A stretch of 64,000 bases of DNA, from NCBI GenBank assembly GCA_963818965.1, contig CAWFUG010000003.1, positions 1-64,000 on the forward strand, written 5' to 3'. Positions within the stretch are counted from its first letter, which is position 1; the number at the start of each line of letters is the position of its first letter. The translations under genes and the position numbers were made by a program. The DNA is from an uncultured Verrucomicrobiae bacterium (GTDB lineage Bacteria; Chlamydiota; Chlamydiia; Chlamydiales; Rhabdochlamydiaceae). Below the pieces are notes generated by a model. That model searched no databases and was not told the origin of the DNA. It was given only the letters and a program-made list of their open reading frames with translations. Of this stretch, positions 17,046-52,951 are shown one piece after another.

Positions 17046-17215
17046 TATACCCCTTCCACCTCAATCGTAACCACAAGCAAACCGATTAAAAGCCTCAAAT
17101 TTCGAATCAAAGGAAGGGGGTTAATATTAATTCAATATTACCCCCTTCCTTTGATTCGAAATTTGAGAACTTTTCATTCGGTTTTCTTGGGTGCGATTGA
17201 GGTGGAAGGGGTATA
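17046..17215. mobile_element. 170-bp palindromic element (MITE/RPE-like), copy A1
   Basis: TATACCCCTTCCACCTCAATCG...CGATTGAGGTGGAAGGGGTATA; whole element is an imperfect inverted repeat; direct repeat of 17960-18129. Confidence 0.85.
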
Positions 17216-17269
17216 TAAGCTGAAAATATTGGGCAGCAAAAAACAATGTCTGTGAAAATGGCCAAAAGT

Positions 17270-17614
17270 TCAAATAGAAGCCGATGGCCTCCTAACGATC
17301 CCAATATTTATCCTAGTATTGCAAATTGCACCATTTTTGAAGATGGGATCGACCTTTTCATGCGAGCTTTCTTCAACCCATAAATCATAGGCCTGCTGTA
17401 AATTAAGCCACAGCTGCGGAGTCGTATCAAATGCTTCCGCAAGCGAAAGAGCGACGGCTGGGGTAACGCTTGACGTACCATTCCTAATTTTAAACAATGT
17501 GTTTCTCGTTATCCCTAATCTATCCGCGAGCTTCTCCAAGTTCAATTTGAGAGGCTTGATGTAATCCTCTTCAAGGAGCTCTCCGGGATGAGTTGGTTTT
17601 CTTCTTTTTGCCAT
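17270..17614 (-). CDS. higA: HigA family antitoxin (HTH)
   Basis: PTHPGELLEEDYI, LADRLGITR, SLAEAFDTTPQLWLNLQQAYDLW. Confidence 0.93.
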   Translation of the reverse strand: MAKRRKPTHPGELLEEDYIKPLKLNLEKLADRLGITRNTLFKIRNGTSSVTPAVALSLAEAFDTTPQLWLNLQQAYDLWVEESSHEKVDPIFKNGAICNTRINIGIVRRPSASI

Positions 17615-49835: not shown

Positions 49836-52800
49836 GACAACACCTCGATCAAGGGATGAAAGGTCAGTTGTAGGCTTCTGTTCCAAAAGTCTAAATGCTC
49901 GATCAATTCTTCTAAAGCGCCACGCTGCTGGAGGTAGATGATGTAAGGATCTTCTTCGTAATGCGCTTGAAATGCCTTCGAGACCTCTTGGGGCGATTGT
50001 GTCAAGATGGACTTGGCCCAAAGGGGCATGAGAGGCGAGGGAATTTGCTTGGCCAGGAAATAATACTCTAAATAGTTTCCTAAGAGTTTTTTGGGATCTT
50101 CTACAGGGAGATCCCAAGCGACGCCCTCTTTAGTGAGGAGCAGCTGAGCGACATCGGGGTAGAGACAGCGGTAGGCGAGATAGAGGGGCCAGGCCTGTAT
50201 GGCACTTTTCCAGTCTGTTTCCCCATGGAAGAGAAGTCCTTTGTCAGAGACATCAGAGAGCGTGCCTATGAGAGAGATGGGACCAAACGCGGTGGGAATT
50301 TCTAAAGGGGGGAAGAATTTTTTCCCCTCGATTTCATGCGGTTTGCGGAGGGGAGTCCACTCGACAGCATAAACAGCGCCGCATTGAAACCTCTCGAGAT
50401 GGGTCGAGAGGGCGTCCATCTCTTCCTGTAACCCTCTTAAGGCGATGTCTTGGAAGATCCCTTGGGGCAGTTTGCCTTTGGCAAGGGCATCATCGAGTGT
50501 TTGGGCTTTAGACTTTTTTAAAGAGGTCTTGCGCAAAAGTCCTTTTTGCAAATAAGAGAGGATGAATTGGTTTTCTTCCTTTGAGACTTCTTCTTTTAAA
50601 GAGAGGTTTAAGACTTTTTGGAAGTAAAAAGAGAGGGGATGGCGCGCGAATTTTCTCAGGTCCTTTAAGTCGACGACGTGTTCTGCAGACGGAAGGTTAC
50701 CCTCGACAGGGAAAAACCGGGAACGATTTTCTTTTCCCTTCTGGAACGAGGGACAGCGCATGGGGGGGTGGTCGTAGCGGGTTATTTTTGTGTATTGCGC
50801 CAGCTCGTCGATGAGAAGGGAGGGAGATTGTGCGTGCGCATCTTCTGCAGAGACCCTCTCGTAGCTGAGCCATAGATAATCTTTGGCGTGCAAGAGGAGA
50901 TTTAAAAAAGCGAATCGATCTTCATCGGAGCGCTGAGGGCCTTCCTGTGGCATCAGACAAAGAGAGCTGGGTGATTCTCTCCGTGGAAAGGCGGTCTCGT
51001 TCAGTCCCAAACAGACGATGATCCGGTGGGGAGAAATTTTCGCCCCATCTAGATGCGTGAAGGTGATTCGATTGAGGTCTCGGTTGTGTTTTTTCCCCGT
51101 TTTTTTTGTTGCGGTATGGCGCAACACGCGCGAAAAACTCTCAAAACTAAAGATGGGTTCCTTCAAATGCGCTAGATCCCTTTCCAACCCTTTAATCTCC
51201 TGGAAAAACAGATCTTTTTCTAAAAGAGTGGGAAAATATTTTTGCAGCAATTTTAAGCAAAAACAGACCCAAGCGCTTCCGCTCCGCTTTTCACTCAAAT
51301 GAGCAAGATCCGCTTGTATTTCTGAAAAAAGAGTGAGAAAACGGTTGAAGAGATCGATGTCGGTTAAAGCGAGCACTCCTTCCACTAGGGCACAACCCAA
51401 GAGAAGCCGTTCGATCCCCGCCTCCCAGCTATTGACATTCCCCTGCAATCCTTCGTGTACTTCGGCAGATTCAAACCATCGGCGCAGCTGGCTGATCTCT
51501 TCAGAAGAGAACGTTTGCATCTGTACTAAGCAGCAAAACACAGCAGTCAGGCTGTAGTTATTCTGGGGCAAGTCGATCAGATCCAAAAATCCGCGCGCCA
51601 CAGGACTAACGTGCGAGAGCTCCAATCCATCGATACAATAACTAAAGGGACCCTGTCCGAAGACCATTTCGATGTAGGGGGTATAGCAAGAGAGATCGGG
51701 GCTCAACACCAATACGTCCCTAGGTTGGTAGGTGCTCTCCTGAAACAAGGCGATTAATCGATCGAAGAGGACTTCTACCTCTCTTTCCTTAGAAATGCTG
51801 CTGTGCACTTGAATCGAATCATCCTCGATCCCCGCTTCGAGCGGGGAGAGGGTGAGAAGAGAGCTCCTCAGTGCATCGAGGAGATTTTTTGGGGAATGGG
51901 CGCGATAGTCATCGCTCTCCACCCAGGAAAGCTGGGCTACATTTTTGAGATGGAGCCGCCCCAATTTTCCCCAATTTCTCAAGAGGGGATGGTCCTCTTC
52001 TGCCATTGCTTCGAGTTGTTCTAGGCTCGCCGTCTTTACTCCCGATTTTTTTAATTTGAATTGAAGATGGGAAAGTTCTTTTTGCGAGAGAAAGTCTTCC
52101 CAAAAATGCTCTGAAGCAGAGTGTTGGAAGAGGCGAGCGCCGAGAGAAAAAAAGAACTGGAGGTGACAAAAAGAGAGGTAGGAAAACCCAAAGAGAGCTA
52201 ATTTTCCCACAAACTGAGAGCGTGTTTTTAAAATCTCTAAGGGGTAAGAAAAAGGAGAGTGTTCTGCGAAGACTTCTCTCCACAGCCACTTTTGAAAGTC
52301 CTCTTTGGGGCTCTTGAGCCAATTTTCTAAAAATTCTGTCCCATAGAGCCCATAGCGGTTAAAAAGAAGAGCGATCTCATCGCTCAATTGGGCTGTTCTC
52401 TTTTGCGACGCGCTGTGTTGGAGGTACTCGATGAGGGAAAGGTTTTGGTCAGAGACAGGAAGCTCGCAGAGCTTTTCTTCGATGGTGAGCGACAAAGCGA
52501 GGAAAGAGGGGATGGTTTTAAAATGATGTTCCGTTGCAAGCAGGTAAGTAACAGCTTGAGGCAGGGAAAGGATCTGCACACCCGCTGCAATTTGTAAGTT
52601 CTCCGCTTCGAGAAACCTTTGCATTAAAAAGTCTTTTACCTTCTCATCGGGCACGACCACGAGCCGTTGTTCAAAAACTTTATACCCGACGCGATTGAAA
52701 AGTTGGCCATTGGACCCGCGCGAAAACTCCCGGGATTGAGTTGCCGAAGAGGGGGGTTGTATTTCTTCAATACTACCCCCCTCTTCGGCAATCTCAATCG

Positions 52801-52951
52801 CGGGGTTTTGGCGCGGTCCAATGGCCAACTTTTCAGTCGCGTCGGGTATAGCTTCCTCAAAAAATAAAAAATCGATGAGTCTTTCTGCTAAGACATCCCA
52901 ATCGTTACTGAATAGAGCGGGGATCGAATAATTCTCGCAGACATTTTTCAT
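49832..52951 (-). CDS. recC: Exodeoxyribonuclease V gamma subunit, with a 56-aa palindromic insertion near the N-terminus
   Basis: FSN..L, HPLLRNWGKLGR, DDSIQVH..REVEVL, PRDVLVLSPD, CLGLNE..FPR, DRFAFL..A, FARHP; first gene of recCBD. Confidence 0.92.
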   Translation of the reverse strand: MKNVCENYSIPALFSNDWDVLAERLIDFLFFEEAIPDATEKLAIGPRQNPAIEIAEEGGSIEEIQPPSSATQSREFSRGSNGQLFNRVGYKVFEQRLVVVPDEKVKDFLMQRFLEAENLQIAAGVQILSLPQAVTYLLATEHHFKTIPSFLALSLTIEEKLCELPVSDQNLSLIEYLQHSASQKRTAQLSDEIALLFNRYGLYGTEFLENWLKSPKEDFQKWLWREVFAEHSPFSYPLEILKTRSQFVGKLALFGFSYLSFCHLQFFFSLGARLFQHSASEHFWEDFLSQKELSHLQFKLKKSGVKTASLEQLEAMAEEDHPLLRNWGKLGRLHLKNVAQLSWVESDDYRAHSPKNLLDALRSSLLTLSPLEAGIEDDSIQVHSSISKEREVEVLFDRLIALFQESTYQPRDVLVLSPDLSCYTPYIEMVFGQGPFSYCIDGLELSHVSPVARGFLDLIDLPQNNYSLTAVFCCLVQMQTFSSEEISQLRRWFESAEVHEGLQGNVNSWEAGIERLLLGCALVEGVLALTDIDLFNRFLTLFSEIQADLAHLSEKRSGSAWVCFCLKLLQKYFPTLLEKDLFFQEIKGLERDLAHLKEPIFSFESFSRVLRHTATKKTGKKHNRDLNRITFTHLDGAKISPHRIIVCLGLNETAFPRRESPSSLCLMPQEGPQRSDEDRFAFLNLLLHAKDYLWLSYERVSAEDAHAQSPSLLIDELAQYTKITRYDHPPMRCPSFQKGKENRSRFFPVEGNLPSAEHVVDLKDLRKFARHPLSFYFQKVLNLSLKEEVSKEENQFILSYLQKGLLRKTSLKKSKAQTLDDALAKGKLPQGIFQDIALRGLQEEMDALSTHLERFQCGAVYAVEWTPLRKPHEIEGKKFFPPLEIPTAFGPISLIGTLSDVSDKGLLFHGETDWKSAIQAWPLYLAYRCLYPDVAQLLLTKEGVAWDLPVEDPKKLLGNYLEYYFLAKQIPSPLMPLWAKSILTQSPQEVSKAFQAHYEEDPYIIYLQQRGALEELIEHLDFWNRSLQLTFHPLIEVLS
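52681..52850. mobile_element. 170-bp palindromic element, copy C, inserted in frame in recC
   Basis: TATACCCGACGCGATTGAAAAGTTGGCCATTGGACC...GGTCCAATGGCCAACTTTTCAGTCGCGTCGGGTATA; central TTGTATTTCTTCAATACTA. Confidence 0.9.

Follow-up and report, generated by a model that had tools for sequence, protein, structure and literature searches.

How a palindrome of some 170 nt without coding capacity for an enzyme can multiply in a chlamydial genome, and how its two arms can stay complementary while differing from copy to copy, is the question raised by a stretch of 64,000 nucleotides from an uncultured bacterium of the Rhabdochlamydiaceae (positions 1 to 64,000 of contig CAWFUG010000003.1; in the following the window). 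The window belongs to contig C3 of assembly GCA_963818965.1 (here G000; 2.24 Mb, 12 contigs, 87.85% complete), whose other contigs are likewise referred to by number, and contains several copies of a hairpin element bounded by TATAC and GTATA. [quoted passage not shown] Judged by its sequence it is an IS630-family MITE of the RUP/ERIC/RPE kind, and the combination of one core with exchangeable ends that appear to come from two distant IS630 groups is a new twist on that known kind.

Palindromes and their insertion sites

The four copies and two fragments with TATAC/GTATA ends that a first-pass annotation of the window had listed are all present. Copies A1 (17046..17215) and A2 (17960..18129) are both 170 nt including both TA, carry arm type A and have the same orientation; copy B (38938..39104) is a full element of 167 nt and lies between genes, 16 bases ahead of a tRNA-Ala(GGC) gene; and copy C (52681..52850), again of 170 nt, is found in frame within recC (exodeoxyribonuclease V gamma, 49832..52951 on the minus strand; Pfam PF04257 and PF17946), at about codons 34-90. 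None of the copies is assigned a strand. The smaller pieces are a family-B left-arm fragment (16874..16909, plus strand) and a 31-nt internal-deletion form, or mini, of family C (18126..18156, no strand), which retains both ends, overlaps the end of A2 and has comparable counterparts elsewhere in G000. A compensatory change between A1 and A2, also noted earlier, is indeed found, since of their four differences those at 69 and 102 compensate each other as a pair, while those at 75 and 148 are one-sided. Folding of A1, B and C as DNA gave z-scores of -18.8, -25.1 and -20.9, with none of 200 shuffles as good for each. The proposed check against Rfam gave, at the gathering threshold, a sole match in the window, the tRNA beside copy B; the element is not in Rfam, and its reading as a curated structured RNA was rejected accordingly.

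In each arm TATAC is followed by an outer stem of 28-30 bases, then by the asymmetric motif, the inner stem and finally a central TATT-N5-AATA loop, five zones in all, of which the outer stem is the one that varies between subfamilies. The core motif is conserved and sub-terminal, and in copy B it is found about 40 bases from the end in a long-arm form, GAAAGCTCCCGSGRTT (38978..38993, plus strand), and on the opposite side in a short-arm form, AAYCSCGGGGCTTTG (39051..39065, plus strand), the central stem-loop GTATT-N5-AATAC with its flanking mismatch (39015..39029, no strand) occurring in either orientation among copies. The motif pair spans 82-89 nt in most loci, and over the 48 loci examined in other records its distance from the end ranges from 39 to 43 nt, with 40-41 the usual value.

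Hairpins that end in TA and have TATAC on one side or both were sought throughout G000, and this gave 59 full elements of 148-178 nt, comprising 21 of type A, 21 of type B, nine of type C, three of type D and five singles, one of the latter with a different core. BLAST with these 59 found 220 related loci, a few of them counted twice through contig C4, and many of these are internal deletions retaining both ends. Contig C4 (22 kb) is itself one long inverted duplication that also repeats part of C12, and is likely an assembly artefact.

The covariance-model check that had been suggested was carried out with a model, R1, whose derivation from a sequence alignment limits it to 51 pairs. R1 gives copy B 184.9 bits and, at a threshold of E <= 1e-4, finds relatives in many families of the order; 53 of the 150 other genomes scanned are positive, a number that is a floor because just 18 candidates were scored per genome. 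In the 19 hits inspected the core motifs are retained and the outer stems differ. An exact scan of the GTDB collection for both core motifs furthermore gave at least 117 stretches, and among those listed 80 are titled, 58 naming chlamydial taxa and 22 other or unnamed taxa, where mislabelling is possible. By these matches the element is widespread in environmental chlamydiae, and it was not found in the plasmids, phages or viral contigs searched. Literature searches, with subscription journals, supplements and ISfinder outside their coverage, returned no description of the chlamydial family and no MITE in the order.

That the element is mobile is borne out by its multiple copies, by TA on both sides and by empty sites with a single TA, and the TA target proposed for it earlier agrees with three paralogue comparisons and with the spacing in RecC. 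The joined flanks of three copies (C1:218176, C12:76253 and C9:411822) correspond to empty paralogous sites with one TA, and removing 168 bases of copy C restores six residues between LF and an FE(K/Q)R-type motif in RecC, a spacing also seen in the relatives L007, L009, L010 and L015, the other five aligned rows differing or aligning poorly there. Insertion into coding sequence is tolerated as well, as had been anticipated, the element being found in recC, aroA and other genes. Conserved proteins are lengthened by 55-56 residues in this way, among them RecC, with an insert of 56 residues, and AroA, where the Pfam match is split by the inserted copy. For eleven of the 59 copies the surrounding frame is open over 30 or more codons ahead of the copy and 50 or more behind it, a minority of these having been compared with homologues, and in-frame copies are read from either strand. 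The claims that net lengths are multiples of three and that each copy has a stop-free frame are correct for the window (168, 168, 165 and 168) but weaken in the genome as a whole, where 44 of 58 net lengths are divisible by three and 15 of the 59 copies, including 10 of the 21 in family A, are without any open frame. Elsewhere a net length divisible by three is found in 31 of 48 loci and, counted by record, in 18 of 25 (binomial p about 1e-4, the records not being independent), and the copies in genome G193 are mostly 163 nt. Divisibility by three is a tendency and no rule; net lengths in multiples of three combined with stop-free frames nevertheless mean that many copies survive within genes. 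Genes can also be disrupted, as at C8:290537-290874, where a tandem A copy and C copy split a gene with an intact paralogue at C9:265009-265770, and the copy at C9:120665 may likewise break a long open reading frame (ORF).

Element arms and IS630 ends

The link to IS630/Tc1 elements, earlier conjectured, is borne out through matching terminal inverted repeats (TIRs), as the outer 28-30 bases resemble the TIRs of IS630 elements subfamily by subfamily. Arm A agrees with the TIR of the IS630 at locus L289 in 24-25 of 30 positions (right arm of A1 24/30, right arm of A2 25/30) and arm C with those of L311 and L364 in 23 of 30, none of 200 shuffles being as good in any of these cases, and the arm of the 31-nt mini likewise matches the TIR of L311 in 23 of 30 positions (0/300 shuffles). 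Against other IS630 groups arms A and C score at most 4.5, and the inner stems, taken as a control, gave 0/93. The transposases in question were confirmed as members of the IS630 family by NF033545, and the TIR types for A and C belong to different branches of one single-ORF transposase clade (37 rows, support 98/97) in a tree of C-terminal parts that holds 50 rows and gave long-branch warnings. The divergence of the arms among families would seem to reflect their origin as ends of separate IS630 elements.

The ends are furthermore of two kinds, since TATAC is found in 28 and TAGT in 20 of the 48 loci outside G000, the latter mostly in a CTAG context. When compared with 24 TATA-group and 19 CTAG-group TIRs (the latter including the L266 group), TATAC arms exceeded the 99th shuffle percentile in 54 of 70 cases against the TATA group and in 0 of 70 against the CTAG group, whereas TAGT arms did so in 1 of 38 and 35 of 38 cases respectively, a dissociation that the one-base offset between TATAC and TAGTAC ends somewhat favours. 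An earlier comparison of the TAGT arms with 18 TIRs, mostly of the L270 group, had given a weak result (2/38). The transposases of the two groups align in short pieces only (best E 0.004, 24% over 67 residues). The inner cores of TATAC- and TAGT-ended copies, with the motif excluded, have a mean identity of 0.76 and a maximum of 0.91, palindrome-preserving shuffles giving 0.44. Two copies in G000 (C8:186941 and C2:58006) are hybrids with two unlike arms, and in one further G000 copy a B- or C-like arm type is joined to an unrelated core. B- or C-like arms are also found on unrelated cores in hairpins of 136-175 nt (L344, L348 and L355 in G236; L327, L334 and L336 in G303), which by comparison of their ends are further MITE families on the same IS630 ends. 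Among 148 IS630 loci the transposase span never contained a core, every hit being a neighbouring element, and since the core is shared across chlamydial families and absent inside the examined IS630s, it appears to have a history of its own.

Ordinary descent, by which one old IS630 MITE would have diversified along with its helper, its arms drifting and never being exchanged, is an unlikely account of this pattern. Co-divergence could explain part of it, as the branches matched by TATAC arms, A and C included, all belong to a single IS630 clade, but the same core bears ends of a second IS630 group with a transposase barely alignable with the first, cores are up to 91% alike between the two end types, and hybrid copies exist. 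The pattern rather suggests that the element may change its helper through changing its ends, although pairwise core similarity and hybrids, from which the exchange of arms is read, do not give its order and direction.

In the mechanism we favour, mobilisation in trans by IS630 enzymes, the transposase would bind the ends of the element, excise it and insert it at TA, cut-and-paste at TA being established IS630/Tc1 chemistry. On several occasions the core would have acquired ends from different IS630 elements. A likely route begins with an IS630 or sister MITE landing on a copy's terminal TA; a deletion, or recombination via the common core, would then replace one of the arms, and template switching could finally copy the new arm onto the opposite side. 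The same switching would keep the stems perfectly complementary and flip the inner segments. Several arrangements are of interest in this connection. At C9:237535-237878 an A-type IS630 TIR is fused to a degraded A core beside a frameshifted transposase remnant. A-type IS630s are mostly flanked by GGTA-TA-TAC, like element ends and like the preference of family A for G/A, T and A/C before TA, and in 11 of the 21 A copies the flank looks like the end of another element. Five of 17 metagenome IS630 loci (L279 and L283-L286) have an element at or near the IS end, the partners being intact, and in L284 the element arm nearly equals the adjoining TIR. Three DNA sequencing runs yielded seven short contig pieces, in one of which an IS630-type end (8 letters) replaces the end of A2, too little to count.

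A number of points weigh against mobilisation by IS630 transposases, in addition to the offset mentioned above. Two further paralogue comparisons (C8:274155 and C8:290537) were unclear. Arm B is without a significant IS630 TIR match (21 of 200 shuffles as good), and so are several B/D arms (11-41 of 200). No intact IS630 transposase was found in G000, incomplete as this assembly is, and the sole IS630 trace there is a frameshifted remnant whose sequence looks noisy. IS630 occurs in 26 of the 53 element-positive and 23 of the 97 element-negative genomes, and Y1 transposases show the same odds ratio (about 3); genomes G155 and G074 are rich in TATA-group IS630 yet have no R1 hit. It should also be mentioned that the arms and TIRs compared come mostly from different genomes, that the rows are related and not independent, and that the TIR ends were chosen by script and partly by eye.

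The IS630 groups that can be named and paired with arm types nonetheless point to candidate helper enzymes, and because of this pairing mobility is directly testable. For most bacterial palindromic MITEs, as summarised in PMC2229807, the helper transposase is unknown or guessed from TA ends. That a single core is combined with the ends of two IS630 groups so far apart furthermore suggests that a MITE can outlive its helper via a change of ends. In rice, according to the account in PMC3660474, the Stowaway MITE Ost35, of the Tc1/mariner type, is moved by the non-cognate Osmar14 transposase; the inner sequence of Ost35 raises transposition and still functions when joined to swapped TIRs in an engineered hybrid. 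That system is eukaryotic and experimental, whereas the core/TIR pairing described here would be its natural counterpart, seen in sequence alone. By analogy with Ost35 our best guess is that the core motifs are conserved for an enhancer or protein-binding role; alternatively they may serve to interrupt a perfect palindrome that would otherwise be unstable. A bolder and more doubtful notion, which we put forward tentatively, is that the core lives as an independent cis-acting parasite on IS630 transposition. Its two bulged motifs, set at a constant 40 bases from the ends, would raise transposition or recruit a host protein, and the core would have persisted throughout the chlamydial order through repeated capture of the ends of active IS630s, even across groups with barely alignable transposases; ERIC would be a distant branch of this system.

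Complementary arms and folded hairpins

The first-pass annotation had ascribed the covariation of the arms to selection for a hairpin in single-stranded DNA or RNA, and this was not supported, the stems being near-strictly Watson-Crick paired and internal segments flipping independently. In the model-fitted alignment 95.4% of cells are paired and double-sided changes number 2361, against 629 in shuffles, with double counting because the alignment holds both strands of most elements. In the outer stems of 34 non-A copies 1097 of 1122 cells are strict Watson-Crick pairs, with 12 G.T and 5 A.C, and the identity of arms is 97% within one copy and 56% between copies. Internal segments flip or turn symmetric independently of each other: the orientation of the centre is divided 16:3 in B (14:6 by another rule), 20:1 in A and 1:2 in D, and the C/G mismatch site reads CC in 18, GG in five, CG in four and GC in three of 33 copies (symmetric in 7/33). 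Template switching between inverted repeats is described as yielding homogenised arms and inverted spacers in the accounts given in PMC8604942 and PMC5941160. Since Watson-Crick stems and flipped segments match this process, the covariation needs no selection at the level of RNA.

Such selection, by which the copies would be maintained as transcribed hairpins, whether RNase III or RNase E sites or terminators, as has been proposed for ERIC and Correia elements, is thus very unlikely to explain the family. The extent of pairing and the excess of double-sided changes, counted from both strands of a model-fitted alignment, do speak in its favour, as do the RNA effects reported for ERIC and NEMIS in PMC2229807. 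Against it are the near lack of wobble pairs in the 1122 cells, the occurrence of the centre and mismatch in both orientations, the in-frame copies read from either strand and the lack of an Rfam match. Local RNA effects of single copies are possible.

A second way of reading a hairpin would be through an enzyme of the HUH type (IS200/IS605 TnpA or RAYT-type) or a similar recombinase acting on the folded single strand, with the bulged core as binding site and cuts 40 bases off at TA. The constant spacing between either end and the core motif, itself bulged and asymmetric, and the very stable hairpin would agree with such an enzyme, peel-and-paste could also leave TA on both sides, and Y1 genes are found in 35 of the 53 element-positive genomes. 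We nevertheless consider it the most improbable of the explanations, because it leaves the correspondence between arms and IS630 TIRs unexplained, because the core motif pattern was present in 0 of 35 Y1 loci examined, many of which carry REP-like repeats of their own, with one locus having a short deletion form of the element about 600 bases off, and because Y1_Tnp was not found in G000. Profile searches there with DDE_3, RVT_1 and Transposase_31/Rpn gave no match either. Nor is there a recurrent gene beside the element, the neighbours of 136 element loci showing none apart from the element's own peptide and duplicate loci. In G000 no half-element pairs enclosing a transposase gene were found. 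A transposase-like gene is present there three times (C1:260647-261771, C2:149521-150645 and C9:458037-459044), with terminal repeats unlike those of this element. Under IS630 mobilisation, the reading we prefer, the hairpin or its core motif may still take part in recognition.

REPINs and REPs with RAYT, as presented in PMC3733652, are hairpin-forming multicopy repeats like the present element, but membership in that class was rejected, neither the GTAG/CGTC tag nor a repeat-flanked Y1 gene being found. RAYT-like Y1 genes with REP-like arrays of their own do occur in environmental chlamydiae (L229-L231, L234, L237, L239, L242 and L244).

Known palindromic elements and neighbouring sequences

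Several features of IS630 MITEs are present in the chlamydial element, which is short, multicopy, without a transposase gene, flanked by a TA duplication and equipped with IS630-like terminal repeats. RUP, the repeat unit of pneumococcus, which has been paired with IS630-Spn1, is in the accounts of PMC2229807 and PMC3049150 a small non-coding element with TA ends and IS630-like repeats, for which mobilisation in trans is proposed. The two elements share TA at both ends, IS630-like terminal repeats and insertion in or near IS elements; however, RUP as portrayed there has a length of 107 bp, is rich in AT, has none of its six frames open and depends on a single IS, whereas the chlamydial element is a near-perfect palindrome of 162-171 bp that is often in frame and bears the ends of several IS630s from two groups. 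The Rickettsia palindromic elements (RPEs) are likewise palindromes, of about 150 bp, in an intracellular bacterium with several families per genome, and they too insert in frame into conserved genes, a likeness drawn from their description and not from sequence; the summaries in PMC10969869 and PMC2229807 name no mobilising enzyme for them and give TA ends for some only.

A resemblance in outline also exists to ERIC/IRU/RU-1 of enterobacteria, with which, according to the descriptions in PMC2759123 and PMC2229807, the element has in common TATAC...GTATA ends, TA duplication, a long hairpin and in-frame fusions. ERIC contains a similar internal motif, AAGCTCCYGGGGATT, once (PMC2759123), whereas here the motif is present twice, and ERIC as described is 127 bp long with arms that are much less perfect. 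Membership in ERIC was rejected, as R1 scores ERIC-type loci at most 9.6 bits (E 0.35) and the lengths differ (162-171 versus 127 bp). Local similarity to ERIC is about 3 standard deviations over shuffles, a figure biased by the picking of ERIC loci through AAGCTCCYGGGGATT, and kinship between ERIC and the chlamydial element is hinted at only. ERIC-type ends match the TIRs of the same IS630 clade in 19-22 of 30 positions (0-4 of 200 shuffles as good), and this clade occurs in enterobacterial and Vibrio plasmids. The clade thereby offers a concrete candidate enzyme for ERIC, although the link is a lead, because for several of these ends equally high scores are reached with the clade's chlamydial TIRs. 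If the notion of a parasitic core were true, ERIC would be moved by the clade's enterobacterial IS630s and would thereby have a helper enzyme open to test. The enterobacterial and Vibrio IS630s (L356-L363) have asymmetric left and right ends, recalling the two ends of ERIC. A further name, MITEEc1_IS630, is one that we take to denote ERIC itself. It is listed in PMC11602168.

Between A1 and A2 lies a higB-higA toxin-antitoxin pair (17270..17907, minus strand; PF05015, PF01381, TIGR02607). The arrangement A1-higBA-A2 occupies 17046-18129, that is 1084 bases from outer end to outer end, and as this is close to the length of IS630s with matching ends, the whole might be mobile as a single unit. 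For the higBA segment no empty site was found; in genome G001 the orthologue of the downstream gene lacks the segment at its side, but that region has lost synteny.

Other repeats accompany the family. A separate 68-nt hairpin with perfect 28-nt arms (16978-17045) abuts the TA of A1 and has one relative at C9:137076-137146. At least four further hairpin families of about 155-170 nt, with different ends and mostly different cores, are found in G000 (C1:238140, C11:18446, C2:66785; C11:96890, C11:347445, C12:8653; C1:37890; C1:312616; C2:36977). A second repeat is made of ACCACAGAG units, often in inverted pairs of 60-230 nt, and occurs in the window at 3979-4052, 36451-36517 and 61353-61412, the unit having 541 matches in G000. 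One GxxExxY-type gene is present at C9:276974-277384 and may be linked to that repeat. Finally, the window encodes a 933-residue protein with repeated RING/U-box domains (995-3796) and a eukaryote-like protein kinase (6900-8396), and these are plausibly host-directed proteins of a chlamydial symbiont.

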